Shown: positions 25,171 through 61,994, counted from the stretch's first letter. The stretch is 64,000 bases of DNA from Thermoanaerobaculia bacterium (GCA_963664405.1 OY761158.1:4768001-4832000); one strand, 5' to 3'. Numbers and translations are program-made. Notes: generated by a model from the letters alone, not told the origin.

Positions 25171-25298
25171 CGCCCGAGCAGTGGATGACGCCCGATGTCC
25201 GCGGCCAGATCGCCGAGTCGAATGACTGTCTCCAGTGTGTCGGCTCGGAAACCGCTCGATGCTGCTTGCCGCTCGAGCAGCTGAGAATCAATTCTCAT
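25140..25298 (-). pseudogene. Truncated AbiEii-type nucleotidyltransferase toxin
   Basis: MRIDSQLLERQAASSGFRADTLETVIRLGDLAADIGRHPLLGRV; start overlaps the abiEi stop; cut just before the expected KGGTA motif. Confidence 0.7.
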
Positions 25299-26085
25299 CC
25301 GGTTCCCTTGCAGTCGTTTGGCTCTCGGGCACGATCACGTTCCAGCGTTCGTTGAGCTCTCCACCGCGTCGATTGCGGACCAGGTAGTGAGGCGACTTGG
25401 GTCGGTGGCGCTGCAATGCGACGAGATAATCTTCCGGCACGTAGAACGTGTTCTGGTAGCGCTCCAGGAACCAACCAATTGCTGCCCAGACAGTCTTGGA
25501 GTCGTAGACCCGAAGGACCTCTCCTAGTAGATCGAGGTCAAGTACGGCGAAGCCGGCAGCGGAGTCGACGAGCTCATCCAGACCTCCCGCGAGGTCGAGT
25601 CGGTGAAAGCAGTCCGCTAGAGTGCGCTCTGGGCCGGTGGTGATGAGTGCCCTGTTGCCTCGTTCCAGCCGACGTACACCGAGGAGTTCCTTACCTCCCC
25701 TAGCGAGGGGCTGTGGGTGTTGGATGAAACGCACGGTCGTTCCTCCGAGGGGTAGGGGGCGCCTTCGCTGATTTGTAAGCACGGTTACGGAGCTCCAGGC
25801 GGAATGGGCTACCCCGAGCAACTCGAGAGCCGAGTGGTGACTGAATACCGCGTCACTTCGGATGGTGGCAGCCACCAGGAAGGGGTCGGGCAGGAACGAC
25901 GTTGGATCGACGCCGGGCGGAATAGATGCGTATACACCCCTTCCCACCGACTTCAGTCGACCGCGGGCCATGTGGTACTTGAGCCGCTGTCGGATCGCAT
26001 GCTCAGCCCCGTTGTTGGCCAACGCCTCCTTGGCCTCGCTTAGGCTGAAGACTGGGTGGGTCTGCAGATAGGTGGAGGTGTTCAT
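25288..26085 (-). CDS. abiEi: Type IV TA antitoxin, AbiEi family
   Basis: N-terminal wHTH (LKSVGRGVYA), FSHHSALELLG, ITTGPERTLADC. Confidence 0.82.
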   Translation of the reverse strand: MNTSTYLQTHPVFSLSEAKEALANNGAEHAIRQRLKYHMARGRLKSVGRGVYASIPPGVDPTSFLPDPFLVAATIRSDAVFSHHSALELLGVAHSAWSSVTVLTNQRRRPLPLGGTTVRFIQHPQPLARGGKELLGVRRLERGNRALITTGPERTLADCFHRLDLAGGLDELVDSAAGFAVLDLDLLGEVLRVYDSKTVWAAIGWFLERYQNTFYVPEDYLVALQRHRPKSPHYLVRNRRGGELNERWNVIVPESQTTAREPDEN

Positions 26086-41034: not shown

Positions 41035-42066
41035 TCAGAACCTCCCTTCGCGCACCTGGTCCTTCGCCCGCTCAGGACTCAGGTGAACGACCTTGCCAGG
41101 CGACACGCTCTCATTCTCGGGTAGCGGCACATCGCCCTTCTCCTTCCCCTTCTCGACCACGCTTTTGAGCCCCCGAAGCCGCTTCGATCCTTCGATGGCT
41201 TCGCCTTCCGAGTAGTACTCAAACCAAGGGAGCCCGGCTTCGTTGTAGGTGTTGGAGGTCGGTGGCACAGTCGGCGGCGCGACACCCGTGATCGACTGCC
41301 ACACCATCGAGTTGGCGATGTGCGTAAAGCAGCGCCCGCCCGCTTCGGTATCCCAATCCTCGAGCTCGAAGGGATCGTCGTAGATCTCCTGACGCATGCG
41401 CCCGCCCGGGGCGAGTGCCATGCTCGGGGAAGCTTCCGGCGATAGGCAGTAGTCGTTCTCGACGCTGCCAAAGACGTTCATCCTGGCCCTTTCGCGGCTC
41501 ACCGGAAAACGCCGATCGAACACGTCTCGCTTCATCGGATAGGCGAGGATCTGAATGCCCCCGTATTCGGCCTCGTCGGTGAGTTGTTCCTCGGCCGAGT
41601 AGCCGGCCCCAAGAGGCATCGCCACGAATTGCCGGATCACGCCCTTCTCGACGCAGAAGCCGTCGAGCCAAGGTTGCTCGGGAGCCACCATGTAGTCCTG
41701 GGGTTTGCCGTGCAGCCGCTCCGACCAGCGCTCGCCGCTGACCGCGTCGATCTTGCCTGCCGCGATCTTGATAGCGAAAGGGTAGTTCCCCTGGCGCGAG
41801 ACGAAGGCCGTATCGAAATTGAGCCACATCGCCTCCGACTGGTACATCGGCAGCATGACGCCTCCGTGCTCGAGCCACTCTCCCGGCACGCTGTCACCGA
41901 AGTCGTCGACATGACGGATGGGGAAGCGCCCCAGACCTGGTGGCAGTGGGTAATCATCGCCGTCGTCGGGGATGCGCAGCGTGCGCTGAAAGTCGATCGA
42001 CAATCGAGCCTGCGGGTGGACCTCCGGGAACGTGAAAACGAGTGAGTCGCCCTTGAGTTGGATCAT
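41035..42066 (-). CDS. Conserved hypothetical protein (FQRTLRIPDD...QPWLDG...RQFVAMPLG family)
   Basis: GAGGA RBS; strongly conserved-looking motifs; co-oriented with the upstream HTH gene. Confidence 0.8.
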   Translation of the reverse strand: MIQLKGDSLVFTFPEVHPQARLSIDFQRTLRIPDDGDDYPLPPGLGRFPIRHVDDFGDSVPGEWLEHGGVMLPMYQSEAMWLNFDTAFVSRQGNYPFAIKIAAGKIDAVSGERWSERLHGKPQDYMVAPEQPWLDGFCVEKGVIRQFVAMPLGAGYSAEEQLTDEAEYGGIQILAYPMKRDVFDRRFPVSRERARMNVFGSVENDYCLSPEASPSMALAPGGRMRQEIYDDPFELEDWDTEAGGRCFTHIANSMVWQSITGVAPPTVPPTSNTYNEAGLPWFEYYSEGEAIEGSKRLRGLKSVVEKGKEKGDVPLPENESVSPGKVVHLSPERAKDQVREGRF

Positions 42067-42077
42067 CCTTTTCCTCC

Positions 42078-42431
42078 TTACCATTTGCCGTCGCGGACCT
42101 CGCGCACGATCCGCAGCACTGCGTGATCGGGCTGGTCCTTGAGCTCACGAATAAGCTGCCCGAAGAGTTGCGGCCGTCGACAGATCAGCTCCTGCAGATC
42201 GCTCGACACCTTGCCCGCCATCGCCAAGAGCACATCGGGATCTTCATCGAGCTCGCGAGCAAGTGCCACGATCTTCTTTTCAGAAGGCGGTGCCTCTTGG
42301 CCCCGCTCTACTTTGCTCAGGTACGAGGGCTCGACCTCGATCCGCGCCGCTACCTTTCGCAGTGAGAAAGATCGGTCTTCGTTTCGAAGTGCTTCTCGCC
42401 GTTCGCGTATGTAATTACCGAATCTCTTCAT
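42078..42431 (-). CDS. XRE-family HTH transcriptional regulator
   Basis: FGNYIRERR..SLRKVAARIEVEPSYLSKVERG. Confidence 0.9.
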   Translation of the reverse strand: MKRFGNYIRERREALRNEDRSFSLRKVAARIEVEPSYLSKVERGQEAPPSEKKIVALARELDEDPDVLLAMAGKVSSDLQELICRRPQLFGQLIRELKDQPDHAVLRIVREVRDGKW

Positions 42432-42436
42432 GAATG

Positions 42437-42452
42437 TGTAGTGTATACTACA
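42437..42452. promoter_or_regulatory. Palindromic operator TGTAGTGTATACTACA
   Basis: Near-perfect palindrome in an AT-rich tract just upstream of the XRE gene. Confidence 0.55.
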
Positions 42453-42562
42453 TACTATACACAATCAAGCCTATGCCGCTCTTCCAGATCACGATTCGGC
42501 AGCTCACGGGCGGTGCAGACAGGAGCTTGAAGGGATCGTTGGGGGAACGCGGAGCGACCCCC

Positions 42563-43228
42563 CTAGATCTCCCCGCTCAACGACCGGACATGCTGTACAA
42601 GCTCAGACTGAGAGCTGACTCCCAGCTTCGAAAACAGTGACCGCAGATGGCTCCTGACAGTGCTAGGTGAGATGTGTAGGTCATTCGCAATCGCCCCAAC
42701 CCGAGCACCCGCGAGAAGCTCCGAGAGCACGTCTTTCTCTCTCGGCGACAAGTCAGCAAGGCCAGGGTGGTTGAGTAAGTGCCGAGTAGCACCACCCGAC
42801 GAGCGGGCCAGTAGCTCGAGCTCGAGGGCGATGTAGTGCAGCCTCTCGGCGAGCTCGGCCGGCCCGGCGCCGAGCTGTCGGGCGCTCCAGATGCGCTCGA
42901 GTGTCACGTGCAGGCCCTCGACAAACTCCACCGAGCCGTCTTCGCGGAGCTCCCGGCGATTGAAGATGTCGAGGAGGGGCACCGTGGCGCCGTCTTTCCT
43001 GAGCCCCATCGTCATGATGAGCCTCTGGTTGCCCTCGTTGTAGCCGTCTATGTGCTCGCTGAGCAGGGGCACCAACTCGGCCGCCATGAATTCCGAGACG
43101 TGATGCCCCACCATCTCGTCTCTGCTGTAGTCGAGGATCGACAACTCGGCGTCGTTGACCTCCAGAACCACCCCGTCCCCGGTTCTGCGGTACCAGCCGA
43201 CGTTCAGAAGGTTCCAGTGATCATCCAT
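42563..43228 (-). CDS. PAS-domain LuxR-family transcriptional regulator
   Basis: VNDA..ILDYSRDEMVG, RKDG (PAS); LSPREKDVL..IANDLHISPSTVRSHLRSLFSKLGV (LuxR HTH). Confidence 0.9.
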   Translation of the reverse strand: MDDHWNLLNVGWYRRTGDGVVLEVNDAELSILDYSRDEMVGHHVSEFMAAELVPLLSEHIDGYNEGNQRLIMTMGLRKDGATVPLLDIFNRRELREDGSVEFVEGLHVTLERIWSARQLGAGPAELAERLHYIALELELLARSSGGATRHLLNHPGLADLSPREKDVLSELLAGARVGAIANDLHISPSTVRSHLRSLFSKLGVSSQSELVQHVRSLSGEI

Positions 43229-43339
43229 TTCAGACTAGGTATTTGGTTAGTTATCGACGTTTCGCCCCATTGCTATTTCGGGTAAGGTCCTTTACAGACA
43301 AGCACTTCAGCCCGCATCGAGGATAGCACTCGAGGCATG

Positions 43340-43520
43340 TCTCTAATGTGGTGGTGGGTGGCAGGGGAGGTTCTGGCGGCCCATGATTCCACCCGACGTA
43401 CCCCCTGCCATCGGGGCGCTACGGCTGCTCGACAAGACTGGCAAGTGCGGGGTTAAGGCCACTTGGACAGCACTCCCGCAAGGGGATTAGCCGCCTTGGA
43501 CGTGGAGCTCTGATTCTCTC
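43340..43520 (-). ncRNA. Structured non-coding segment; candidate orphan IS110-type left end/bridge RNA
   Basis: Two stem-loops with internal loops (e.g. TGGCAGGGG 43359-43367 pairs with CCCCTGCCA 43402-43410); resembles IS110 non-coding ends as recalled, unverified. Confidence 0.35.
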
Positions 43521-43763
43521 TGCTAACGTGGTCCGAATCCATCCAGCTTCAGGGCCTTGCAGCCTTCAAGGCAGGAGAGAATCGCCCAGTCTGAGGTCGG
43601 TGCAAAAGACATGAGCCTAGGTCGACACTGGGACCGAGCCGAGAATGCTCGGCGCGTGGCTACTGGATCCTGGGGCCAGAGGTCGACCTGACCCGGCATG
43701 GCCATCGAACGGCCCGCTTCCCACCTCCCAAGAGCACCTGTAACTGAAGAGTCTAGTAGAGCT

Positions 43764-46715
43764 ATGACCCACCCCATCCACCGGCGCTACTACGCGGAGG
43801 ACCTTGTCCGCCGCCGCCGCGCCGGTGAGGCCCGGCGGTATGCCTCGTCGCAGCGTCAAGGCCGGATCGATGCAAACCCCCACCAGATCGACGCTGTCAT
43901 GTTCGCGCTGGGTCGGATTCCTGACGGCGGGTGCATCCTTGCCGATGAGGTCGGTCTCGGAAAGACCATCGAAGCAGGGCTCGTGATGGCGCAGATGTTG
44001 TCGGAAGGGGCCGAGAGGATTCTCCTAGTGCTTCCTCGCGCCCTGCTCGGCCAGTGGCAGGATGAGCTCTACACGTTGTTTGGCATGACGGCGATCGAGG
44101 CCGACGCCAACGACGCAGACCTCAACGCACCGGGAGTTTTTCTCGCGGGACGCGAATGGGCAGGAACTGAGAGGGGCTCGAGCAAGCTCACCAGTGGGCC
44201 CCCATTTGACCTCGTGATCATCGATGAGGCCCACGAGGTTTTCGCGGGCATCTACCGGCGCTTCGATCGGCATGGGGCGTATCGAGCCGACAGCCCGTAT
44301 GCGATGACCGCCCACCGCGTCCAGCTCCTCATCGGGCCCTCCCCTGTGCTCCTTCTCACCGCGACCCCCATGCAGAACTCGCTCAACGAGCTGTGGGGCC
44401 TGGTGCAATACATCGACCGCACCAACACCCTGCTCGGGCACCAGCCCACCTTCAAGGCGCTCTTCTGCGAAGACCCAAGCGGCCGGCGCATCGTGCCGGA
44501 GCAGTCTCTCGAGCTTCAACGCCGGCTCGGCTCCGTGGTGCAGCGAACCCTCCGCCGCCAGGCGCAGGAATTTCTCGACAAGCCCTTCGTCCATCGACAG
44601 ACCAAGCTCTTCGAGTACACCATGACCCCAGAAGAGCGTGCGCTCTACGACGACGTCACCGCCTACCTGCTCGAGCCGACTCTGTTCGCGTTCCGCGGCC
44701 GCTCGCGGCAGCTCCTCCTCATCGGTTTCCATCGCCGCATGGCCTCGTCGACGGCGGCCCTCGCACAGAGCCTCGAACAAGTCGCCAAGCGTCTGCGTGG
44801 GATTCTCAAAGGAGTCGCGGAGGCCGATCTGCCCGACATCCGTTTCGAATTCCTTGCCGACCTCGAAGACGAGCTCGACGTCCCCGAGTCTGAGGACGTC
44901 GAAGTCGAGCCCCAGCCCGAAGGCGTGAGAGCCGAGCTGGCGCGTGTCGAGGACTTCGTGCGCCGAGCCCAGGACCTTCCCCACGACAGCAAGGCGGAAA
45001 GCCTCGTCCAGGCAGTCCGAGCACTCGGCGAACGCGAGGAAGGTAGCGACAAGGTGGTGATCTTCACCGAGTCCCTGGTAACGCAGCAGTTCCTCCGCAC
45101 TCTGCTGATCGACAAAGCTGGGCTCAGCGACGAGGACATCACTCTCTTCAGCGGCACCAACGAGACTCCTCGTGCTCGCGAAGCTCTCGAGCAATGGCAA
45201 GAGGATGTGGGCAAGAACCTCGCTCCTCATGCTAAGCCCAGCAAGAAGGTCGCGATTCGCCTGGCGCTCGTCCACGACTTCAAGACCCGCTCCCGCGTCC
45301 TCATCTCGACCGAAGCGGGCGCGAAGGGTCTCAACCTGCAGTTCTGCGACACTATCGTCAACTACGACCTGCCCTGGAACCCCCAGCGCATCGAGCAGCG
45401 CATCGGCCGCTGCCACCGCTACGGCCAGAAGCACGACGTCACCGTCATCAACTTCCTGGCATCGGACAACGAGGCCCAGCGCCTCACTTTCGACATCCTC
45501 AGCCAGAAACTAGAGCTCTTCGGAGCCGTCCTTGGCATGTCCGACGAAGTACTCCACCAGCCCGGAAGCGACGGCAACTCGCAGCTGGGAATGGCGCTCG
45601 GGCCCGACTTCGAAAGTCAGCTCAACAAGATCTGGGATCGCGCGCGCTCCGTCGAGGAGGTCGAAGAAGAGCTGCGCAAGCTGCGCGATTCGATGGACGA
45701 TCGGCGACGCGAGCTGGAAGAAGTTCACGAGCGGACCGTTGGTCTGATCGAGAGCCGGCTCGACGAATCGGTACACCAGGTTTTCCGCCGCATCCGCGAC
45801 GAGCTGCCGGCTACTCTCGCCGAGCTCGACAAGGAGCTCGAGCGGGTCGCGCTCAGCTACCTCGAAGCCGCCGATGCCCCTCACCAGGTTCGCGAAAGCG
45901 GCGAACGGCGCATCATCGAGCTCTGGCGAGATCCTCGGTTGCCCGAACCACTCGCTTCGGGCCTTACCATCGCTGTGGGCGGCTCCAGCGGCCTCGAGGA
46001 TCTCGAGCCTCTTCACACCAGCCACCCCTTGATCGAGGCGGCTCTCGCCGAGGCACGTGAAGCCGGGTCTGGCAACTTCCGGCTGCGCTTCGAGCTCGGC
46101 GAGAATTCCTCGGAGATCCTCCAGCAACGCCGTGGCTCGCGTGGCCGTCTCGCCCTGACCAAGGTGTCCTATGACGGCTTCGAGCGAGAGGATCGCCTCA
46201 TCGCGACGGCGATCTTCGAAGACTCTGACGTCCTCCGCCCGGCAGAAGCCGCCCATGAGTTCCTCCAGCTCCCCTGCACTGAGCTGCCGGCCTCGGTCCC
46301 CGAGTGGTCGCTCACCGCCGAGGAGCTCGACGAAGTCGTTGATGAAGAGGTCTTCCTCGACCAGTCGGCGGCGGCGCAGCGCGACCAGGCGAGCTTCGAG
46401 AAGTCGATCGACCAGCTCGACCAATACATGGAAGATCGCGCCCTCCTGCTACGGCGCAACCGCGCCGACCTCACCGGGCGCATCGAGACCGCTGAAGCCA
46501 AGCGTGACGGCGCGCTCGGCGCCGACGCGCGCAACGACGCAGAAGAGAAGCTCAAGAAGCTCGAGCTCGAGGCGGAGGAGATCGACGCGTCCCTCGATCG
46601 AGTCGCTACTCGCCAAGACCCCGACTACGAGAAATGGAAGAAACACGCCCACACCAGGCGCTATCGATCACCCGAGGCCGAGCGCCTTTTCAGCGTTGAG
46701 TTCGAGCTCGCGTGA
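43764..46715 (+). CDS. SNF2-family (RapA/DrmD-like) helicase
   Basis: HQIDA, LADEVGLGKT, IIDEAH, LLTATPMQN, TEAGAKGLNLQ, YDLPWNPQRIEQRIGRCHRYGQ; coiled-coil C-terminus. Confidence 0.93.
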   Translation: MTHPIHRRYYAEDLVRRRRAGEARRYASSQRQGRIDANPHQIDAVMFALGRIPDGGCILADEVGLGKTIEAGLVMAQMLSEGAERILLVLPRALLGQWQDELYTLFGMTAIEADANDADLNAPGVFLAGREWAGTERGSSKLTSGPPFDLVIIDEAHEVFAGIYRRFDRHGAYRADSPYAMTAHRVQLLIGPSPVLLLTATPMQNSLNELWGLVQYIDRTNTLLGHQPTFKALFCEDPSGRRIVPEQSLELQRRLGSVVQRTLRRQAQEFLDKPFVHRQTKLFEYTMTPEERALYDDVTAYLLEPTLFAFRGRSRQLLLIGFHRRMASSTAALAQSLEQVAKRLRGILKGVAEADLPDIRFEFLADLEDELDVPESEDVEVEPQPEGVRAELARVEDFVRRAQDLPHDSKAESLVQAVRALGEREEGSDKVVIFTESLVTQQFLRTLLIDKAGLSDEDITLFSGTNETPRAREALEQWQEDVGKNLAPHAKPSKKVAIRLALVHDFKTRSRVLISTEAGAKGLNLQFCDTIVNYDLPWNPQRIEQRIGRCHRYGQKHDVTVINFLASDNEAQRLTFDILSQKLELFGAVLGMSDEVLHQPGSDGNSQLGMALGPDFESQLNKIWDRARSVEEVEEELRKLRDSMDDRRRELEEVHERTVGLIESRLDESVHQVFRRIRDELPATLAELDKELERVALSYLEAADAPHQVRESGERRIIELWRDPRLPEPLASGLTIAVGGSSGLEDLEPLHTSHPLIEAALAEAREAGSGNFRLRFELGENSSEILQQRRGSRGRLALTKVSYDGFEREDRLIATAIFEDSDVLRPAEAAHEFLQLPCTELPASVPEWSLTAEELDEVVDEEVFLDQSAAAQRDQASFEKSIDQLDQYMEDRALLLRRNRADLTGRIETAEAKRDGALGADARNDAEEKLKKLELEAEEIDASLDRVATRQDPDYEKWKKHAHTRRYRSPEAERLFSVEFELA

Positions 46716-47869
46716 CCAACCAGGAGACAGAAGACGTGGCTCTCAAGCTTCTCCACACCGCCGACTGGCACCTCGGTCGCCGCTTCCCCATGTTCAACGA
46801 AGACCAAGAGCGGGGGCTGACGCGCGCTCGCCGCGACGTCGTCGGGCGGATTCTCGATCTCGCTGAGAGTCGCGGCGTCGATGCTGTCCTCTGCGCCGGG
46901 GATCTCTTCGACGAGCCTGCACCCGCCGAGGAGTGGTGGAGCGCCGTGCTCGACGAGCTCCGCTCACGCAGTGACTGGACCAGGCCCGCCTTCCTTCTGC
47001 CAGGCAACCACGACCCGCTCCTCCCCAACTCCGTCTATCAGACCGGGCATCCCTTCCGCGAAAGCCTGCCAAGCTACGTGCACGTCATCGATCGAGAGGA
47101 CTACGAATTCCAGATCTCGGACCAAGCCGTTCTCTACTCCACCCCCTGCCGCTCTCATGCGGGCCAGCTAGACCCGACAGCGCGCATTCCCATGCGCGAA
47201 CCCGGCGACGAACGCATCCGCATTGGCTTGGTACACGGCCAAACCTTTGACATGGAAGGGCACCAGACCAACTTCCCCATCGATCCGCAAGCCGCGAAGG
47301 AGCGAGGCCTCGACTATCTCGCCCTCGGCGACACCCACGCCTTCCGCGAGCTCCAGAACGCGGGAGAGCCTCCTGTCGTCTACCCAGGGGCTCCGGAACA
47401 GGCAAAGTTTGGTGAAACGGACACTGGCCACGTAGCAGTTGTCTTCTTCCCACTCGATCGGGGCCGCTTCGCATTAGTCGAGAAGCAGGCCGTTGGCGCC
47501 TGGCAGTGGCGTGAGCAAACTTGCTCATCCATTGAGGAGCTCCGCTCCCTGCGTAACGACGACACTCTCAGAAAGTGTGTTCTGCGACTCCAGGTCAACA
47601 TGACCGCTCCGCTGAAGGAGTACGACGAGGCCGAGCGAATCCTAAGAGAGTTGGAGGGCTCCCTCTCGGCACATCCTCGGGTCGGTGTCCTCGAGGTCGA
47701 TCGGAAGAGTCTCCGACTCGAGAGCCCGAGCATCGACGACTTCCCCGAGCTCCCTCCGGTCCTCCAGTCCGTCGTTGAGCGTTTGAACGCTCGTGCCGGC
47801 CAAGAGCCCGAGAAAGCCGAGCGTGCTCTTCACTACCTATATGAGCTGGTGAAAGGGAGTAGCGCCTGA
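46712..47869 (+). CDS. Mre11/SbcD-like metallophosphoesterase nuclease
   Basis: LHTADWHLG, CAGDLFD, PGNHD, VHG, YLALGDTH, YPGAPE; GTGA overlap with the SNF2 stop. Confidence 0.93.
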   Translation: MTNQETEDVALKLLHTADWHLGRRFPMFNEDQERGLTRARRDVVGRILDLAESRGVDAVLCAGDLFDEPAPAEEWWSAVLDELRSRSDWTRPAFLLPGNHDPLLPNSVYQTGHPFRESLPSYVHVIDREDYEFQISDQAVLYSTPCRSHAGQLDPTARIPMREPGDERIRIGLVHGQTFDMEGHQTNFPIDPQAAKERGLDYLALGDTHAFRELQNAGEPPVVYPGAPEQAKFGETDTGHVAVVFFPLDRGRFALVEKQAVGAWQWREQTCSSIEELRSLRNDDTLRKCVLRLQVNMTAPLKEYDEAERILRELEGSLSAHPRVGVLEVDRKSLRLESPSIDDFPELPPVLQSVVERLNARAGQEPEKAERALHYLYELVKGSSA

Positions 47870-50800
47870 TGTGGCTTCGGAAGCTCCATGTGCGCTCTTT
47901 CGCCGGCATCAAGGAGGCAGAAGTCAACCTCGAACCAAACCTCAACGTTCTCTACGGGCCCAACGAGCTCGGCAAGTCGACTCTCCTGCAGGCGATCCGA
48001 GCGGCCCTGCTTCTGCCCCACAGCTCCGCCAGGCACCGACCCTTCATCGATTGGCATGACGACCGGCCGCCCAGAGTCACCCTTACTTTCGAGACGGAGG
48101 AGCAGCGCATCTGGAGGGTGCAAAAGAGCTTTGGAGCCGGCGCCGACGGCTCGAGCCTCCTCGAGTTCTCGCGCGACGGCCTGAGCTTTAGTCTCGACTG
48201 CAAAGGCCGCGAAGTCGATGGCAAGCTCCGCGAGTTGCTCAGTTGGGGCGCCGGCTCCCCCGGCGGCAGCAAGGCACGAGCCGCAGGCTGGCCCGACACC
48301 TTTCTCAGTACCGCTCTGCTTGGATCACAGGATGAAGTTTCTGCGATTCTCGACAAGGGGCTGGAAGGCGACCTCGACGAATCGGGCAAAGACCTCATCG
48401 CGCGCTCTCTCCAAGCAATCGCGGAAAGCCCCGTGTTCAGAAGCGTTCTCGAGAGAGCTCAGGAGAAAGTTGAGAGGGCCTACACGGCCACAGGGAAAAA
48501 GAGCAGAGCGAAGGGCTCGCCCTGGATGGGAAGCCAGGAGCGCATCAGGCTCCGCCAGGAGTCTCTGGAGAGTATTCAGCGCCTTGCCGACAACAGCAGC
48601 GCGGCGAAGCTCGAGATGGAGAAACTGCAAGAGCTGCTTCAACAAGCGGAGCTGGAGCAGAGCGAGGCTGCTGGCGGGCTCCAGGAGATAGAAACCGCTC
48701 ATTCACAACAGGAGGCTTGGGTCGCCGCGTCCCGACTCCTCGCCGCGGCGACCGAAGAACGCGATCGCATCCTCGGTCTTCACAAGGCAGTCGAGACGAC
48801 CCAGGCTGAGATCGATCAGGCAAAGAGCGAATTCTCCATCGCCGAGGAAACAAAGAAGGGTGCCGAAGCGGACCTCCTCGCCGCACAAACGGAACACCAG
48901 CAGGCTAGGCAAAGAATCCTCGATCTCGAGAGTGACGATGTTGAGCAGAAGCGCAAGATTCGCAGGCAAGAGATCGAAAAGAGCGTCCTCGAGCTGGAAG
49001 GTAGGCAGAAAGACGCCCAGCGCGAGGTGGAGCTCGCGAAAGACGCCCTAGCTAAGGAGCGCGAAGTCAGTGAGCTGGGAAGCCGCATCTCAAGCTTAGA
49101 GAAGCAACTGTCTGAAGCCCGATCCCTCGTTGAAACCGCGCGAACGGAAATCAAGAAGGAGAGGCAAGAGCTCAGCGAGATGACGCTCTACGAGAAGCTC
49201 CGCGCCTACCAATCGTCTAGCCAAGCCCTCACGAGCGCCAACAAGGCCAGAGACAACGCAGCAGAGCTCCGCACCCAAGCTGGGGCCATGAAAGACAAGG
49301 CTCGTACCTTCCGCAGCGAGGTGGCAGCCCTCGGTCTGCCAACCGATGACGCCCTCCGCGAGTTGGCAGCGTTAGAACGGGAGCTCGAAATCGCAGAGGC
49401 GAAGGTTCAGATCGAGCTCTCTCTTCTCATTCGCCCTCTTCGTGAAATCGAGATCAGTATCGACACCGGCGATCGCCCCACAGAAACCCGTAAGATCAGC
49501 AGCCCGGAGACGTTCGAAGCCCAAGGTGTTCTCCGTGCTCAGATCGGCGACGCGGCAGATATCGAAGTATCCGGCGGCAACGCCGATCAGCGCCAGGAGG
49601 CAGCCGACGCTAGACTACGATGGGAGAGGACCTCAGCACCCCTTTTCGAGAAGTTCGGAGTCTCGACCCGGGTAGATCTCGAGAGTAGCTGCCGCTCGGA
49701 GAGCGAGAAACTAGTCGAGGTCGAGCGGATCGAAGGAGAGGCCGCAAACCTGGAGGCAAGAGCCGAAGGGCTCGGGCATGCCGGAAGCCAACTGGAAGAG
49801 CTGGAGGCCAAGGCGGAGACCTCCAAGCGATCCTTGGAGCTCGCCCTTCCAGAGGGGATTGCTCTCGAAGAGCTCGAATCGCGCTTCGAGGGAGTCGAGC
49901 AGGGCGAGCTTGATCGACAAGAGCTGGAAGACCGAATCGCTACCAAGGAAGAGCAGGCGCAGATCCTAGAAACGAAGATAGCGGTGGACGAGGGACAGCT
50001 CGAATCCCAGAAGGAGGAGCTCGAAGCTCAGAAGCGTGAGAGCGCCGAAGCCCGCGACAAGTTACCCGACGATCCACAGAAGGTGTTCGAGCGAGCGACG
50101 TACTTACTCGGGGAGTACGAGAAAAACCTCCAGGCGGACTCCGCCGAGCTCGAGGTCCTCGATGGCTTCGCCGAGACTGAGACGGCCGAGGCACGCGTGG
50201 CGCAGGACTCTGCTTCCAAAGCCGTTGAGACTGCTAACGAATGTGCGCGATCGGCAGACAGCGCCAGAAATGCGGCCAAGCAACGGGTCGACAGCCTGGA
50301 AGGAGAGCTCCGCGCTCGTGAGGCAGCCGCGGAAGTGGAGGACATGACCGCCTCACTAGCACTCGTCGAGGATAGAGAGAAGGCGCTCGCCGACCTGCCA
50401 GAATCTACGTCCCAGGTCGACGAGGAACAGCTCACCTACGCCAGATCAGAGGTTGAGCTTGCAAAGAAGGAGCTCGACAGGTTGCGGCAAGAATTCAGCA
50501 AGCAAGAGGGCGCTCTCGAGCAGGTGGGGGGCCAGTACGTCGACGAGAAGACGTCGGAAGCCGAGGAAGCTCTCATCGCCGCCACGAGAGAAGAGCAGGA
50601 CGTCGAGCTCGAGTACGCCTCCTGGCAACTACTGCTCGAAACGCTCAAAGAGGCAGAAAGCGAAGACGCCGTCCATCTCGGTAACTCCCTTGTCGTCCCC
50701 ATCAGCGAGAACATGAAAGAGCTCACCCGCGGGCGCTACGACAAAGTCTCGCTCGGCCCCAAACTCTCCGGCACGTCGGTCTCGCTCGACGGCTCGGATC

Positions 50801-51102
50801 GAGAGCTCGATCTCCTCTCGATCGGCACTCGCGATCAGCTCGCCACCCTCATCCGCCTCGCCGTTGCCCAAGCGGTAAAGAGTGCCCTCGTACTAGATGA
50901 CCAGCTCGTCCAAAGCGACCCCAAGCGTATGGAGTGGCTGACTGAGCTCATGTACAAGTGCGCCGATGACTTCCAGGTAGTCGTGTTCACCTGCCGGCCG
51001 GAAGAGTACGAGCTACCGAACCAGACAGCGAGAGCCAACTGGGTGAACCTCGAGAAAGTCGTGGAAAGAACGCAGCCCTTGCAACTCGAGACATCCGAGT
51101 AG
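47869..51102 (+). CDS. Rad50/SbcC/SMC-like coiled-coil ABC ATPase
   Basis: Walker A GPNELGKS, long coiled coils, signature LSIGT, Walker B LVLDDQLVQSD, VFTC; TGATG overlap; no CxxC hook. Confidence 0.9.
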   Translation: MWLRKLHVRSFAGIKEAEVNLEPNLNVLYGPNELGKSTLLQAIRAALLLPHSSARHRPFIDWHDDRPPRVTLTFETEEQRIWRVQKSFGAGADGSSLLEFSRDGLSFSLDCKGREVDGKLRELLSWGAGSPGGSKARAAGWPDTFLSTALLGSQDEVSAILDKGLEGDLDESGKDLIARSLQAIAESPVFRSVLERAQEKVERAYTATGKKSRAKGSPWMGSQERIRLRQESLESIQRLADNSSAAKLEMEKLQELLQQAELEQSEAAGGLQEIETAHSQQEAWVAASRLLAAATEERDRILGLHKAVETTQAEIDQAKSEFSIAEETKKGAEADLLAAQTEHQQARQRILDLESDDVEQKRKIRRQEIEKSVLELEGRQKDAQREVELAKDALAKEREVSELGSRISSLEKQLSEARSLVETARTEIKKERQELSEMTLYEKLRAYQSSSQALTSANKARDNAAELRTQAGAMKDKARTFRSEVAALGLPTDDALRELAALERELEIAEAKVQIELSLLIRPLREIEISIDTGDRPTETRKISSPETFEAQGVLRAQIGDAADIEVSGGNADQRQEAADARLRWERTSAPLFEKFGVSTRVDLESSCRSESEKLVEVERIEGEAANLEARAEGLGHAGSQLEELEAKAETSKRSLELALPEGIALEELESRFEGVEQGELDRQELEDRIATKEEQAQILETKIAVDEGQLESQKEELEAQKRESAEARDKLPDDPQKVFERATYLLGEYEKNLQADSAELEVLDGFAETETAEARVAQDSASKAVETANECARSADSARNAAKQRVDSLEGELRAREAAAEVEDMTASLALVEDREKALADLPESTSQVDEEQLTYARSEVELAKKELDRLRQEFSKQEGALEQVGGQYVDEKTSEAEEALIAATREEQDVELEYASWQLLLETLKEAESEDAVHLGNSLVVPISENMKELTRGRYDKVSLGPKLSGTSVSLDGSDRELDLLSIGTRDQLATLIRLAVAQAVKSALVLDDQLVQSDPKRMEWLTELMYKCADDFQVVVFTCRPEEYELPNQTARANWVNLEKVVERTQPLQLETSE

Positions 51103-51289
51103 ACTCCTAACAGTCCCTGGAACCCAAGTGAGAGTGCCCGATGTATTCAGGCGCTATCCACCGAATGGGCTCAGATCTCGCGTATCTCAGGTCGCCGGTG
51201 CATCCTGAAGGCACTGTCAAGTTGGCCTCGGTCGAGATAAGCTTCGGCTTGTTGAATGTCCGTCGGCTCGGAGTCAGTGGGCACACGTC

Positions 51290-51542
51290 ACCTGCGCACG
51301 ACCAATCCAATTGAGTCGACCTTTGCGACCGTCAAGCTGCGCACCAAGAGGACCAAAGGGTGCGGCAGTCGAACCGCTTGCCTCACCATGGTCTTCCAGC
51401 TCGCCAGGTCCGCCGAAAGGCGATGGCGAGCTCTCAATGCAGCCAGCCTCTTACCTGATGTCTTACGAGGAACCGAGTTCGTCGATGGAGTAATACAAGC
51501 CGCCTGACTCGAACCTCAGAGCACAACTTTTGACAGTATCTC
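51290..51542 (+). mobile_element. IS256-family 3' remnant
   Basis: HLRTTNPIESTFATVKLRT..MVFQLARSAERRWRAL; terminal CACAACTTTTGACAGTATCTC. Confidence 0.85.
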
Positions 51543-51588
51543 GGTGGGAATTGCACCCACTGAGAATCGCCGGCTTTTCACGGCGCAC
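51543..51588 (-). other. 5' end of a group II intron inserted in IS6 (truncated)
   Basis: GTGCGCCGTGAAAAGCCGGCGATTCTCAGTGGGTGCAATTCCCACC begins with GUGYG exactly where IS6 homology stops. Confidence 0.6.
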
Positions 51589-54500
51589 CAGAATCGGTAG
51601 TAGAGCCAGACGGCATAGCTGATGATGTCGGGCGGGAACCGGTGGCCGCGGTAGCTGGTTTGTCGCTCATCATCGGTCCAGTCCGACGGCGACCGCCTCA
51701 ACTTGACAATGCCAGCGACGTGGCCGAGGTGCCATACAGGCCTTGGGAGGAGCCGAGCCGCCGTTGCGGGTAACCAATAGCGCTAAAGCAACCGGCCTTG
51801 GGAGCGGGAGTGTGCGTTGCCCACCGACTCAGCCCAGACGCGTCACGCTTTTAGCGCCGAAAGGTACTCGCCCTGAGGTGCCAGCGCCTATGCGGGTTCA
51901 AGCTCGGTAGGATCCGTGATGAACAGGCGAAGCTGCCTGCGCAGGCGCGGGAAACACCTCGACGGTTCGTCGAACGAGAGAGCCACTACCTCTGGGGAAG
52001 GCGCTCTTTGCTCTCTGTTTGGAAAGAAGAGGCGAAGCCCTTCTGGTTCGTGACTTCCGATAGCCGATCTGCACCGGCCGGGCAAGATAGGATGGGCAGC
52101 GTCGAATGGAATACCTTACCCCCTATCAAGCACCGTCGACTCCTGGGCGATTCATGGACATCACACTCCGCGAAGCGTGCCCTCCTCTGGAAGACGCCCA
52201 GCCAGTTTCGCGTTCCTTCCGCAACCTCCAGGCAAACCGCGAGCACATCCACATGATGGTGGTAGGAGGGCATGAGTCCACTCGCTAGTCGCACCTACTC
52301 GAACGCCTCTTGCGAGAGAGGGTGGCCCCCAGGCCTGCCGTCGACTGACGTGCCCCTTCCCGGCTCCATAGAGGGTCGTCCATGACGGAACCAGGGACCG
52401 ACCCGGACCGCGAGAAGGGAATCTCGCTATACAAGTTTCTTCTCGAGTTGACCAGACTTCGTACGAGGGTCGTCCACTCGATTGACGATTACCCGACGAG
52501 GACGATTTTCTTGGGAGATGTGCCGATCGACCATCGGTGTCGCTCCGGCCTATGGGTTCGTGAGGGACTGCCAGAGGATGGTCGGCAGGACTTGCTCCCG
52601 CGGGCCGATGACTGCTGGCTGGAAGTCGACAAGCCGGACTTGGCGCCCCCTCCGAAACCGAGTGAGAGCCTCCGGCCCTGGATTGTTGAAGAGCAACTTC
52701 ACGATTCGAAACTGGACTTCCCCGAACTGCGAGCGGAGCGGCTGTTACTCGACGAGAACGGCGACGCGACAACGATCGAGCTGAGCAACGAACCGGGTGT
52801 CGAGGATGACTGGAACCACTTTGTTGAGGAAGAGTGGTGGCCCTGGGCCGCGCGAGATCGACGGCTACGACCCCTTCAAGATCTCTATGCCAAGCTCTTC
52901 TCAATTCACCAGGCGCTTGGTCTCGAGGGGGAGCGGTACGAGCTCCTTGTCGGACAGGGCCTGCTCGCCTGGAAGTCGGCTGGCGGTCTCGATGTAAAGA
53001 GGCATCTTCTTGTTGCGTCGGCTGCGATTCAGCATGACGCCGACCGCGGCATCATCACGGTGGGCCCCGCCGGCGACGGCCCTGACCTGCGTCTTGAAGA
53101 AGAGATGGTCCCGCCAGAGCAGCGTCCGTCCGTGTTGGGCCGAGGCGATGTCGACGACCTTCGGCAGTCGGTTGGGGACCAGATCTTCACACCGGTCCCG
53201 GTCGATCGCCTCCTTCGGACCTGGGTACAGGACGCGGATGCTGCCGGCCAATACTCCGAGTCCCTTTCTCCACCTCCGCGCAGTGCGGAACCGATCGTCC
53301 ACCTTGCACCCGCACTCGTGCTGCGTGAGCGAACCGACCGTTCCTTCCTTAGAGCTTTCGAAGAGATCCTCGAACAGCTTGAGGCGGGCGAGCCCGTTCC
53401 TGAGGGGCTGAAGCGTTTCGTAACCGCCGCCGATGCATGGAATCCAGGTTCAGGGGGCAGCCCCTCGGGAGGGAGTGCCGCGGGGAGCTCGGAGATCTAC
53501 TTCCCCCTCCCCGCAAACGCTGAACAACGCGAGATCGTAGATCGCCTTGGCCGCCGGCCAGGTGTCCTCGTTCAAGGGCCCCCAGGCACCGGTAAGTCCC
53601 ACACGATCGTCAATCTAATCTGCCACCTCCTTGCGACCGGTCAAAGGGTTCTGGTGACGAGTCACACGGCCCGTGCCCTGGCTGTTATTCAGAGACTGCT
53701 GCAGAAACGAGTCGCGGTGATCGCGCCTCTTGCCGTCGTCGCCATGGGCAACGACCGTGACTCTCTTGAGGCGATGGAAGGGTCTGTCCAGGGCATCACC
53801 AGTCGTCAGAATTCTTGGGACCCTAGGGTTGCGCAGCGCACAATCGAATCTCAGGTAGAGAGGCTCGACGAAGCTCGCCGGCTCAAAGCTTCCACGCTGA
53901 CGCGACTGAGGGAATTACGTGAGCAGGAGACTCTGCGTCAGGGGTTGCGCTTCGGCTCCTACAGCGGGACTCTCGGGCAGATTGCATCGCAGCTTCGCTC
54001 CGAGGAGGAGGAACTTGGCTGGTTGGCGGAAGCCGTTGGCGGCGAGGCCTCTCCCCTCTTAGCACCGCAGAGTTCGGCCGGCTTCTCGGGCTTCTCCGCT
54101 CTCCAGCCATCGACGCTGCAGAAGAGAGGGGGGTCGAAACCTCAGACCCTTCGGCTCTCCCGCGCCCCGAGGATCTGCAGAGACTCGCTGAACTCGAGCA
54201 AGAAGCTGAGCTAGCTGACCAGGCAGTCGAAGGGCTGCACTCGCATCCCGTGTTCGCGCCGCTTGCGAGTCTTGAGGACGAAGACCGAAAGTCCGTAGGT
54301 ACGAAGCTCGAGACGCTCCTTGACGGTGCGAGGCTGGTGGGGAACCACCTCCAAGAATGGACCGAGCACGCCGTTCACCAGGTCCTTGGTGACCGCGATC
54401 GGGTCTGGCGACAGCTACTCGCGGCGACAGAATCGCACCTGAAGCGGATTGGAGACCGTGCGCCCTGGGCTGATGAGAACCCAATGCTCGAGGGTACGGG

Positions 54501-55409
54501 GCGCCACCCGGACGCAATCGCTTCTGATACGCGAGAGGTGATTAAGCACTTCGAGGCCGGAAAAGGTTGGGGCCTTGGTCCGTTCGCCAGATCTCGGATC
54601 AAGGCCTGCCGCTATCTTCGGGAGGTGAGGATCGGAGGGCGTCCCTGTCGTGCACTTGAGAGTCTTCGTGACCTCGCCTCTTGGCTTGATGTCGACCGTG
54701 AATGCCGCGACCTGAACCTTCTCTGGCGCGAGCACACGAATCTCTCTGGGAAGCCTTTCTGTGTTCAGGTCTCGGAGTATGGGGACCTCTGCGAACCTCT
54801 GGCCTCGGTGCTCGATCTCTACGAAGTACGCGATGAGGCCCGTGCCGCTTATCAGAAACACGGTTTGGCTGAACCGACGTGGCACGACCTCAAAGATGTG
54901 GAGGGCCATCTGTCAGCACTGCGGGCCGCAGATGCTCGGGCTCGGAGGGAAACAGTTCGCCAGCGAGCAGGGGACCTCCGAGGCCGCCTCCAGACTGTGC
55001 GAGCCGTGGGCAAGGCGCCTTCAGAGGTGGGTAGTCTGCTTAGCGCCTTCGAGGAGCGGGACGTTCGCGCCTTTCGAGAGGCGAGGGAAGCGCTGGAAAG
55101 ACTGCACGGGCTGTTGCTCGAAGCCGATGAGCGGCGAGCCCTACTCGACCGACTGCGATCTGCGCTTCCTGAGACCGCGGCCCAGCTCGAGGCGACCTTC
55201 CATGACGAGCCGTGGTCCCGCCGGGCTCAGACCCTGGAGAGGGCCTGGCGGTGGGGAGCCTGCCGAGCATGGGTGAGAGTGAGCACGATAATCGATGGGA
55301 ATGTTGGCCATTCTGAGCACGGTAGGTGAGGGAAGGGTGTTTGGTCCCTCAAGTAGTGTGCTCAAGACTAGGTCCGTCGGCATCATCCCCGCCGAAGGCG
55401 GGCCGTCGG

Positions 55410-56773
55410 GGATCCGTCCCGAATGCTGTGGAAATTGAGAATGGCGTAACCTCCTAGTGGTCAAACACATCGCCGGTTAGGGCGAACGGAGGATTACGCC
55501 ATGGTGGAGAATATCAACGAGGAAGGGGAAGCTGCACGCTTCCGTCAGGACATTCGTTCGTTGTTACGCGAGCGTGTTCGTGCGGCGATCGAGATCACAC
55601 TCGAGGAAGAGCTGTCCGAGGCGCTGGGCTGCAGCGCCTACGAGCGTTCAGGCGAGCGTGCGGGCTATCGCAACGGCAAGCAGCGTCGTCTGATCACGAC
55701 GGCGTGTGGGTCGAAGGAACTGGACATTCCACGAGGACGGCTAGTCGGCGAGGATGGGGCCAGCGTAGAGTTTCGCAGTGCGATCGTGCCGCGTTACGCT
55801 CGTCGTACGCAGGAGGTCGATGACGCGATCCTGGGTGCGTATCTGGCTGGCGCTAACAGCCGCCGGATCAAGAAGGCATTGGCTCCGCTGCTGGGTGAGG
55901 AGCACCTGTCCAAGAGCGCAGTTTCGCGTGTGGTGTCTCGGCTGAAGGAGCTTTTTGCTCGCTGGAGTGAGCGCGATCTGTCGGAGGAGTCCTACGTGCT
56001 TCTGTTTCTCGATGGCTTTCACCTGAAGGTCCGCTTGGCCCGTCGAGTGGTCTCGGTACCGGTGCTGGTGGTGCTGGGTGTGACTCCGGACGGCACCAAG
56101 GTGCTGGTGGCCTTACGTTTAGCCGCGAGCGAGGCCGCCGAGCACTGGAAGTGGCTGATCGAGGATCTGAAGGCCCGAGGTCTTCAGGCTCCGCGCTACC
56201 TGGTCACGGATGGCCACAAAGGGCTGGCCGCGGCGCTGAAGGCTTGGCCTGAGGTCAAAGTCCAGCGCTGCGTCCAACACAAGTGGGAGAATCTGAAGAA
56301 ACACTGCCCGGTGCACGCACACGACGAGCTGCGGCGTGACTGGCACTCGATCGTACGAGCCGAGGACGCGGCACAGGCCCGCAAGGCCTACGCGGCGTTC
56401 GTCACCAAGTGGTCGCGACTAGTCCCGGCGGTGGCTCGCAGCCTTGAGGAGGCAGGGTTCCAGCTACTGACCTTCTACGAGCTCCCCAAATCGCTGTGGA
56501 GTTCGGTGCGCACGACCAACGCTCTGGAGAACCTGAACCGCGAGTTTCGTCGCCGCACTAAAACCCAGGGCTCCTTTGCCACCGAGGCTGCCGGCGTCAC
56601 GCTCCTCTGGGGGCTCGTCGCCTTCGGGCAGATACACCTGCGAAGGATTAACGGCTACCGGGCGCTTCAGCTCCTGCTCGAGGTTGAGAGGGCCGCGTAA
56701 ACGGTAGGATTTAGCAAAAGACGACTCGGAGGACTACGCCTGAACCCATTTCCACAAAAAACGGGACACATCC
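55410..56773 (+). mobile_element. IS256-family insertion sequence (complete)
   Basis: Imperfect IRs GGATCCGTCCCGAATGCTGTGGAAAT / ATTTCCACAAAAAACGGGACACATCC; 8-bp duplication GCCGTCGG. Confidence 0.92.
55501..56700 (+). CDS. IS256 family transposase
   Basis: GYRNG, IPRGR, LFLDG, VTDGHKGL, QRCVQHK, RTTNALENLNREFRRRTK. Confidence 0.95.
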   Translation: MVENINEEGEAARFRQDIRSLLRERVRAAIEITLEEELSEALGCSAYERSGERAGYRNGKQRRLITTACGSKELDIPRGRLVGEDGASVEFRSAIVPRYARRTQEVDDAILGAYLAGANSRRIKKALAPLLGEEHLSKSAVSRVVSRLKELFARWSERDLSEESYVLLFLDGFHLKVRLARRVVSVPVLVVLGVTPDGTKVLVALRLAASEAAEHWKWLIEDLKARGLQAPRYLVTDGHKGLAAALKAWPEVKVQRCVQHKWENLKKHCPVHAHDELRRDWHSIVRAEDAAQARKAYAAFVTKWSRLVPAVARSLEEAGFQLLTFYELPKSLWSSVRTTNALENLNREFRRRTKTQGSFATEAAGVTLLWGLVAFGQIHLRRINGYRALQLLLEVERAA

Positions 56774-61610: not shown

Positions 61611-61994
61611 GACAACCGAGCCAGTCCGAGGCGCTATGGTGATTGGGTGGCGATTCGCTGGTATCGTAGCGATCTACTTGTGAATTGCGGTTGCCGATAC
61701 TTGAGAGTGGTTCTGGCTGGCACTTTTCTGACAGTTGCGTAATCTGCCCCAGCGGATGGCAATGCGTCTCAAAGAGGATCTCACCAGCGAGTGTCGACGA
61801 TGAAGAGACCGAGGTGGGGGATGGAGCGAGCCGTCTACCGGGCATGGCGAGCGGTTGAACTGGCGTTACGTGACCGAAGTGGCTCGGCACAACGGGAGAG
61901 GAGTCGCAGATGGGGACTGCCACCGGAACTTTGGGATAGGGTTTCTCGCCCCTCGCGAGAGACGCAATGATTGAGCAGCTGTGAGACACCACCG

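Follow-up and report, generated by a model that had tools for sequence, protein, structure and literature searches.

Complexes of the Mre11/Rad50 type are universal processors of DNA ends, and SNF2 motors recur in several bacterial immune systems that are still poorly understood (DISARM, BREX, Zorya and Dpd). Operons in which a motor gene accompanies an Mre11/Rad50-type pair are known from the HerA-Mre11-Rad50-NurA end-resection operons of archaea, Actinomycetota and Deinococcus. Here we describe a cassette of three genes, the triad, at positions 43,764 to 51,102 of a 64,000-nucleotide (nt) stretch of DNA from a Thermoanaerobaculia bacterium (GCA_963664405.1 OY761158.1:4768001-4832000; G+C ~62%), referred to below as the window. 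It encodes an SNF2-family helicase/translocase, an Mre11/SbcD-type metallophosphoesterase nuclease and a Rad50/SbcC/SbcE-like ATP-binding cassette (ABC) ATPase with long coiled coils and no zinc hook. Set beside the HerA operons, the triad has SNF2 instead of HerA as its motor and lacks NurA. We find that the triad is inherited as one unit, and that it is a rare mobile cassette which probably attacks or processes DNA ends.

The closest characterized relative of the nuclease-ATPase pair, likened by its published description, is SbcE/SbcF (YhaN/YhaO) of Bacillus subtilis, a pair that the initial annotation of this locus did not mention. SbcE is described as free of CxxC, and its central domain, which is unique and conserved, includes a conserved proline; the SbcD-like nuclease gene yhaO lies immediately upstream of the SbcC-like ATPase gene yhaN (PMC2811018). 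By this description, the triad pair has the same nuclease-then-ATPase order, the same absence of CxxC and an SbcC-like ATPase with coiled coils of ~300 amino acids (aa) per arm, and the SbcE central domain with its proline can be compared to the apex domain of the triad ATPase, in which Pro491 is invariant. The triad differs in that its pair is joined in an operon with an SNF2 translocase, which is found beside none of 44 more distant pairs. It differs in distribution as well: SbcE is reported from "all Gram positive genomes analysed" (PMC2811018) and would thus be lineage-wide, whereas the triad cassette is rare, mobile and island-borne.

Canonical SbcCD/Mre11-Rad50 complexes (Escherichia coli SbcCD, 6s6v; Thermotoga, 3qg5) share with the triad the Mre11-type metal motifs, the Rad50-type ABC head, the antiparallel coiled coil and the operon order. 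However, the triad has no zinc hook, a DD Walker B, no H-loop histidine, a beta-rich apex domain and a coupled SNF2 gene. We therefore rejected canonical SbcCD as an identity for the pair: the nuclease scores below the cut-off of TIGR00619 sbcd (74.5 against 77.65 bits; for NF008206, 44.8 against 450), CxxC is found in 0/20 triad ATPases, and a DD Walker B in 20/20. Nor is the triad the housekeeping SbcCD of this organism, because a separate canonical pair of overlapping sbcD (385 aa, TIGR00619 178.7 bits) and sbcC (814 aa) genes lies elsewhere in the same genome (G000:C1:2321448-2324991, L114), with a CPVC hook, LDEG (a DE Walker B) and THM in its SbcC; the distinction from housekeeping SbcCD drawn in the initial annotation is thus borne out. 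A third SbcD-like match (49.9 bits) lies ~11 kb from the canonical pair (G000:C1:2336233-2336508, L106/L115).

All three triad genes are intact and lie on the plus strand. The SNF2 gene (43764..46715) encodes 983 aa; its longest open reading frame (ORF) begins at 43698 and would give 1005 aa, and the start at 43764, Met23 of that frame, is likelier because homologues align from residue ~19-25. The nuclease gene (46712..47869; 385 aa) starts with a GTG that overlaps the SNF2 stop codon by 4 nt (gcGTGAcc, GTGA at 46712-46715), and the ATG of the ATPase gene (47869..51102; 1077 aa) overlaps the nuclease stop by 1 nt (gccTGATGtgg, TGATG at 47867-47871). The same 4-nt or 1-nt overlaps were found again in homologous loci, for instance L015, L035, L048, L013 and L025. 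The reading frames and junctions agree with the initial annotation, which had described three intact, co-oriented genes joined by GTGA and TGATG overlaps and had placed the SNF2 start at 43764.

The nuclease matches Pfam Metallophos (47.3 bits), and its best relatives in the PDB are the Thermotoga SbcD/Mre11 structures (4o24, 2q8u, 3qg5; E ~1e-13 to 1e-14); it has no PADLOC match. We located the motifs DWH, GDLFD, GNHD (phosphoesterase motif III; 47003-47014, plus strand), LVHGQ and GDTH. All of these motifs are invariant in an alignment of 28 nuclease sequences (A1), with the residues D18, H20, D64, N99, H100, H175, D207 and H209.

The SNF2 protein matches the Pfam families SNF2-rel_dom (78 bits) and Helicase_C (62.4 bits). 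GLGKT (43953-43967, plus strand), TATP and QRIGRCHRYGQ were located in its sequence, and the helicase motifs, including the motif II DEAH (44223-44234, plus strand), are invariant in an alignment of 23 sequences (A2). Among all NCBIfam and PADLOC models the core (residues 54-711) is nearest to DrmD_b (NF038318, 443.9 bits against a cut-off of 950; PADLOC DrmD PDLC02619, 442.3 bits), and NF038317 gives 222.9 bits against a cut-off of 610. The best structural matches of its AlphaFold2 (AF2) model are likewise SNF2 cores (1z63, Z 23.3; ZorD 8qyc, Z 22.1); this search used the whole model and returned helicase cores only, so that the C-terminal domain was barely probed by it. That domain (45831..46712, plus strand; 294 aa, residues 690-983) is modelled at a predicted local distance difference test score (pLDDT) of ~88-94 as a beta-rich domain, a long helical hairpin and a closing strand. 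Searched by itself it has no NCBIfam or PADLOC match at E<=1, and a profile search of the PDB found no sequence relative, with a single chance-level match at E 0.43. Against 1.84 billion representative sequences its profile recovers 558 at E<=0.001, 290 at 1e-10 and 134 at 1e-30. Many of the 558 are fragments; in the full-length matches the domain is always C-terminal, in proteins of ~925-1030 aa. The domain marks a small family specific to the triad-type SNF2 proteins.

Family matches of the ATPase are limited to the N-terminal Walker A region (AAA_15, 31.8 bits; AAA_27, 27.7 bits against a cut-off of 22 and over profile positions 1-50 only). The AAA_27 (YhaN-type) match is not discriminating since the model also gives matches in 12/14 control genomes, and a literature match for AAA_27 together with defense proved to be an accession-number artefact. 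The top PADLOC match is LmuB (35 bits, residues 1-93 only), and the top PDB matches of the ATPase profile are Rad50 heads (E 8.7e-12). In the AF2 model (mean pLDDT 79.2) a head formed by residues 1-217 and 937-1067 is followed outward by an antiparallel coiled coil and an apex domain that takes the place of the zinc hook (49339-49668, plus strand). This apex domain comprises Pro491, a helix (493-515), six strands (517-569) and a second helix (572-596). Pro491 is invariant in an alignment of 20 triad ATPases (A3). Both structural claims made initially for this protein, the missing CxxC hook and the beta-rich insert between the coiled-coil arms (IELSLLIRP...DIEVSGG, residues 515-570, six predicted strands), stand. 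The apex domain by itself has no NCBIfam or PADLOC match, and a Protein Atlas search with it returned unnamed clusters only.

The nucleotide-binding motifs of the ATPase are in part unusual. Walker A (GPNELGKST, 47956-47982, plus strand) is invariant in A3, as is the ABC signature LSIGTRDQ, which lies with the Walker B LVLDDQL and with FTCRP at the H-loop position at 50815-51000 (plus strand). Walker B reads hhhDD(Q/H)L, not hhhDE, in 20/20 triad ATPases, with Asp at the position of the catalytic Glu, and at the usual place of the H-loop His 19/20 sequences have T-C-(R/H/W)-P and one has T-A-R-P. The initial statement that all catalytic motifs are present thus holds for the helicase and the nuclease but is not strictly true for the ATPase, because its Walker B and H-loop are atypical. 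At two triad loci, L045 (7163-12523) and L047 (8466-13817), the ATPases are ~1785 aa long, ~700 aa above the others, which implies far longer coiled-coil arms.

A pattern scan of metagenome contigs with the nuclease alignment gave 80 loci in two tiers of identity, in which we scored neighbours wherever more than 300 bp was present on the side concerned. In tier 1 (34 loci, nuclease identity >=44%) an SNF2 gene lies directly upstream in 26/28 testable loci and an ATPase gene downstream in 27/27. In tier 2 (46 loci, 27-35%) an SNF2 gene lies directly upstream in 0/44 testable loci, while the ATPase is downstream in 33/40. As for the two tier-1 loci that were missed, an SNF2 ORF does adjoin the nuclease gene in L047 but its C-terminus has diverged, and L053 offers only 672 bp of upstream flank. 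Whole-genome searches located the triad also in L015 and in a sister genus, where 4/10 genomes carry it. L017 carries the triad too, and is not an independent lineage because its flanks are 91-93% identical to those of a sister-genus genome. In 18 complete loci the distance matrices of the SNF2 protein, nuclease and ATPase correlate at r 0.93-0.96, a value reached in 0/2000 permutations; since linked genes share a history, this shows co-inheritance, not interaction. A complex prediction for the nuclease with SNF2 residues 600-983 (score 0.15, mark 0.32) weighs neither way. The three genes are thus a co-inherited unit, and the neighbourhood check proposed initially, conservation of the triad, comes out in its favour.

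The cassette is also accessory, patchy and horizontally mobile. With the nuclease as a probe (E<=1e-70) we found it in 8/401 genomes and 4/228 genera of the phylum, and close relatives of the nuclease and SNF2 protein are labelled Acidobacteriota, Planctomycetota and Gammaproteobacteria, those labelled with the latter two including homologues at ~50-61% identity. In the sister genus the triad fills the gap between two convergent aminoacyl-tRNA-synthetase genes, GluRS-like and GlnS. The inserts of 7.5-7.8 kb in genomes G010 and G020 consist of the triad with nothing else, with a margin of <100 bp in G020; the 8.7-kb insert of G016 adds an Xre/ParS-type antitoxin gene, the ~12-kb insert of G024 an 809-aa ORF, and in L017 (8.7 kb) a HEPN gene was called just 3' of the ATPase gene. 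G022 presents an empty site with ~115 bp between the flanks, and G018 and G021 hold ~1.2 kb of other DNA in the gap. Given these insert sizes and the empty site, the boundaries of the cassette coincide with the three genes. Five triad-free sister-genus genomes retain both flanks at 85-93% identity, and we detected no triad remnants in them (best tblastn E 0.54). This gap (L011-L014, L017, L109-L113) is an insertion hotspot with variable cargo. The window itself contains no tRNA gene, and no integrase adjoins its cassette.

No named system that we compared accounts for the triad. DISARM class 1 and the BREX helicases BrxHI/HII come nearest for the SNF2 core, which is closest to DrmD_b. We rejected DISARM class 1 since the SNF2 scores are far below both DrmD cut-offs and the C-terminal 294 aa match no DrmD model at E<=1. 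Scans of the window and of 21 other triad loci found none of DrmA, DrmB, DrmC, a methyltransferase, PglZ or PglX beside the triad. BREX type 3 (BrxHII) was rejected as well: PglZ, PglX and BrxC are not adjacent, and the sole trace is a BrxC_BrxD match of 20.6 bits (cut-off 22.2) 11 kb downstream. The ZorD protein of Zorya, an SNF2 motor fused to an Mrr nuclease, aligns with the core of the triad SNF2 protein over 422 residues (root-mean-square deviation 6.0), and by analogy the triad may work in a ZorD-like manner, with an SNF2 translocase and a nuclease degrading invading DNA. Unlike ZorD, the triad has a separate Mre11-type nuclease, an SMC-like partner and no ZorA/B membrane sensor, and in L030, where the triad has a complete Zorya next to it, the two are separate systems. 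With Lamassu (LmuB) and Wadjet (JetC) the triad shares an SMC-like ATPase that may sense DNA ends or topology, together with a nuclease as effector. The triad, however, has no LmuA/LmuC or JetA/B/D partners, its effector is of the Mre11 type and an SNF2 motor is added; Lamassu was rejected because the LmuB models match only the first 93 residues of the ATPase and the neighbours include neither LmuA nor LmuC. PADLOC-DB 2.0 (2023) and NCBIfam 20.0 (2026) contain no model that gives a name to the nuclease, to the ATPase or to the three genes together. Full-text literature searches found no description of a triad of SNF2, SbcD-like and SbcC-like genes, an earlier mention in supplementary files, an ABC-ATPase classification, DefenseFinder or a post-2023 PADLOC being possible, and the available parts of PMC12839542, PMC10853773, PMC3710099 and PMC10586767 do not mention it. 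Within these databases and searches the triad is, as first suggested, no named system: its parts are known families and its architecture is a new combination.

The more distant, SNF2-less relatives belong to the same hookless family, because their ATPases also have a DD Walker B, TC(R/H) and no CxxC (21/21); those sampled are ~880-900 aa long, against ~1075 aa in the triad. They are common, and tblastn matched such distant relatives in 205 plasmid records. Strikingly often these pairs adjoin other helicases, among defence-type genes: DUF4011-MTES_1575 helicase-nucleases in L061, L074 and L089, an MrfA-like helicase in L071, NERD-UvrD in L097 and type I/III restriction genes in L088 and L092. 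On the conjugative plasmid pISP0 of Sphingomonas sp. MM-1 (L107) the pair is accompanied by a gene for a WYL regulator and by one of the TM0106 RecB-like kind, which bears the annotation "putative nuclease"; large DEAD-box helicases follow downstream. L072 is a further SNF2-less locus with helicase-type neighbours, the kinds of which include RNase_H_2/TM0106 RecB-like genes overall. There may be a general theme here, in which a variable motor is combined with an SbcEF-like pair.

What is the cassette for? The preferred reading, held at about even odds, is that the triad is a self-contained three-gene machine for defence against invading DNA. We favor it because of the patchy distribution, the insertion at a hotspot and the neighbours. 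For the neighbours we considered 22 triad loci, the window and 21 others, within 10 kb of the triad; 134 flank ORFs of the 21 other loci were compared with Pfam and 40 picked ORFs with PADLOC, the ORFs being called by a simple longest-ORF rule, under which some genes in G+C-rich stretches come out merged or split. Zorya ZorB/C/D genes lie directly upstream of the triad in L030, and a PDC-S37/Hhe-like helicase-nuclease lies directly upstream in L035 and L040. Gabija GajA/B and Avs2 are near the triad in L038 and L032, respectively. L015 has a fragmented BrxC with a phage-type integrase and a transposase, L017 has PDC-S01 and HEPN, and L034 has GmrSD. At PADLOC E<=1e-30 strong defence matches occur in 8/22 triad loci and in at least 10/141 flank ORFs, a lower bound as 40 of the ~141 ORFs were scanned. 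As control we took eight 18-kb windows at random positions in five genomes that carry the triad; at the same threshold they gave 1/8 windows and 2/111 ORFs (one Iet system). The excess of defence genes near the triad is suggestive only.

How such a machine might work can be sketched from the parts. An SbcEF-class (Mre11/Rad50-type) nuclease-ATPase complex would act together with a dedicated DrmD-like SNF2 translocase on double-stranded DNA. The hookless ATPase would probably dimerize through its beta-rich apex domain and clamp DNA ends or unusual structures. In a first step this SMC-like ATPase would sense a free or blocked DNA end, such as might be met on injected or replicating phage DNA or on linear plasmid intermediates; it would then position the Mre11-like nuclease for cutting. 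The SNF2 motor would finally contribute what Mre11/Rad50 lacks, directional movement along the duplex and removal of bound proteins, and would thereby turn local nicking into long-range destruction. The Asp in place of the Walker B Glu suggests slow hydrolysis, and a long-lived, ATP-bound and DNA-clamped state may suit a sensor. Family scans of the triad and of its neighbours in the window found no methylase or other self-marking gene in the cassette. Without a modification gene, self would have to be told from non-self by the ends or the topology of the DNA, in the manner of RecBCD, Lamassu or Wadjet. Taken to its full extent, the proposal is of a new class of SMC-based innate immunity, in which a hookless Rad50-like sensor with a slowed ATPase site (DD Walker B) detects invading DNA, linear or end-bearing, and hands it to an SNF2-driven Mre11-type nuclease, while DNA modification plays no part; we put this forward tentatively, as a minority possibility. 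If it is true, the SNF2-less pairs with their different helicases would be sister systems, and together they would form one large unrecognized "motor + SbcEF" family spanning defence islands and conjugative plasmids.

Several observations, however, weigh against a role in defence. The excess of defence neighbours is not significant with so small a control (Fisher p 0.07 for ORFs, 0.37 for loci), so the enrichment in defence islands that the initial annotation had asked for, with strong neighbours in 8/22 loci, is not established over the background of 1/8 control windows. Flanks are mostly metabolic or housekeeping in L025, L027, L043, L044, L049 and the four sister-genus loci. A search of phage and plasmid collections for the triad nuclease turned up distant relatives only: all matches are <60% identical, and the best of those listed <=31%. 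An ATPase with Asp for the catalytic Glu and no H-loop His may have a cycle that is slow or purely regulatory. The triad is also incomplete in L018, an 8848-bp contig of a low-coverage Planctomycetota metagenome-assembled genome, which has SNF2 and nuclease genes with 49-51% identity to those of the window and no ATPase detectable in 5.1 kb downstream (tblastn E<=1, A3 profile); this gap could be a loss, a rearrangement or an assembly problem. Finally, B. subtilis SbcE/SbcF act in double-strand break (DSB) repair and in competence/transformation (PMC2811018).

This last point leads to the strongest alternative, in which the cassette is an accessory module for DSB end resection or repair: the SbcEF-like pair would trim broken or blocked ends, the SNF2 protein would clear nucleoid proteins or drive resection, and the whole would be an optional fitness cassette. 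We consider this a serious rival, though less probable than defence. Mechanistically a repair role is just as coherent as defence, and it would have analogues in HerA-Mre11-Rad50-NurA and in the eukaryotic MRN complex, which is aided by the SNF2 remodellers Fun30/SMARCAD1. The helicases and helicase-nucleases beside SNF2-less relatives (L061, L074, L089, pISP0) fit a logic of motor plus end processing, and the cassette carries no gene that marks self from non-self. SbcE and SbcF join a hookless, proline-bearing central domain and the same gene order to DSB-repair and transformation phenotypes (PMC2811018). Against it stand the extreme patchiness (8/401 genomes), the clean insertion or deletion at a variable hotspot where toxin-antitoxin and HEPN genes are also taken up, neighbours that include Zorya, Gabija, Avs2 and BrxC, and a canonical SbcCD already in the genome. 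A weaker point on the same side is that three LexA-box consensus patterns, and two other trial patterns with them, found no match within 300 bp upstream in 20/21 loci, the consensus perhaps not being that of these phyla; the sole match is at -294 in L012.

A second alternative makes the triad part of a larger system that needs the DUF4011/AAA_11/AAA_12/MTES_1575 helicase-nuclease (Hhe/PDC-S37-like), which we regard as improbable. In L035 and L040 this gene immediately precedes the triad, whereas in the window it follows it; the window and L040 copies are orthologues (38-48% identity, residues 16-1720), and the same type adjoins the SNF2-less pairs of L061, L074 and L089. Against this, it occurs in only 3/22 triad loci, its position and orientation vary, the inserts of G020 and G010 hold the triad with no other gene, and PDC-S37 is filed under its own PADLOC model; from the PADLOC naming we take Hhe and PDC-S37 to be single-gene systems. 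In the window the larger system would be dead, because its helicase-nuclease gene is broken. Chance adjacency of an independent single-gene SNF2 system and an independent nuclease-ATPase pair, to which the abundance of SNF2-less pairs (33/40 testable distant loci, 205 plasmid records) and the ATPase-free L018 might point, is already disfavoured and very unlikely, given SNF2 adjacency in 26/28 against 0/44 loci, the correlated divergence of the three proteins, stop/start overlaps conserved across loci, cassette boundaries that coincide with three genes, and an SNF2 C-terminal domain that is always C-terminal in full-length proteins of ~925-1030 aa.

Under either the defence or the repair reading, the cassette would offer a simple three-protein model of the cooperation between a translocase on duplex DNA and a machine of the Mre11/Rad50 type, and the same question of cooperation stands for eukaryotic MRN and SNF2 remodellers. 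If the triad acts in immunity, a modification-free, end-sensing system would join Lamassu and Wadjet, and the far larger set of uncharacterized SbcEF-like pairs in islands and on plasmids would be suggested as modules of immunity or of plasmid competition. If it acts in repair, accessory repair modules that are traded horizontally share their hotspots with defence genes, which would be a caution for discovery by guilt-by-association.

The remainder of the window bears in part on the defence reading. Downstream of the triad lies the broken SF1 helicase-nuclease gene (AAA_11/AAA_12/MTES_1575; 52409-59371, plus strand; PADLOC PDC-S37 133.9 bits, Hhe 84.4 bits), a pseudogene with a frame change near 54030-54050 and an insertion of the IS256 family. 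The inserted element encodes a Mutator-type transposase (55501-56700) and is bounded by perfect inverted repeats of 26 nt (55273-55298 and 57098-57123). The decay of the surrounding DNA noted initially is confirmed for this gene, the sole neighbour that was checked. Further downstream, an ORF at 61971-63998 (plus strand) encodes a pair of SAP domains (54.4 bits), after which the BrxC/BrxD-like ATPase match mentioned above begins, and runs off the end of the window; it may be another defence-type gene. The notion that the triad heads a defence island rests, in the window, on one broken Hhe/PDC-S37-like gene and one BrxC/D-like match below its cut-off.

On the other side of the triad, and on the minus strand, are a PAS-LuxR regulator gene (42563-43228), an XRE-type helix-turn-helix (HTH) gene (42078-42464) and, overlapping the latter, a 349-aa ORF with no family match (41035-42084). 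Farther away, and also on the minus strand, are an IS30-like transposase gene (HTH_38 and rve; 20158-21621) and an ORF weakly similar to AbiEi antitoxins (25288-26085). With the IS256 copy, these two show that debris of mobile and defence-type genes is present in the region.

A scan of 43200-52400 found 0 sigma-70-like promoter sites (0.8 expected) and terminator-like sites on the minus strand only, fewer than in shuffled sequences. The motifs GACGCTGTAGCGC and CGCTACAAT were not seen upstream of the cassette copy in the window. They occur in the sister genus: GACGCTGTAGCGC, which forms an imperfect inverted repeat and may be an operator, lies just 5' of the operon in L013, L014 and L017, and the -10-like CGCTACAAT, which may be a promoter, lies just 5' of it in L011, L014 and L017.

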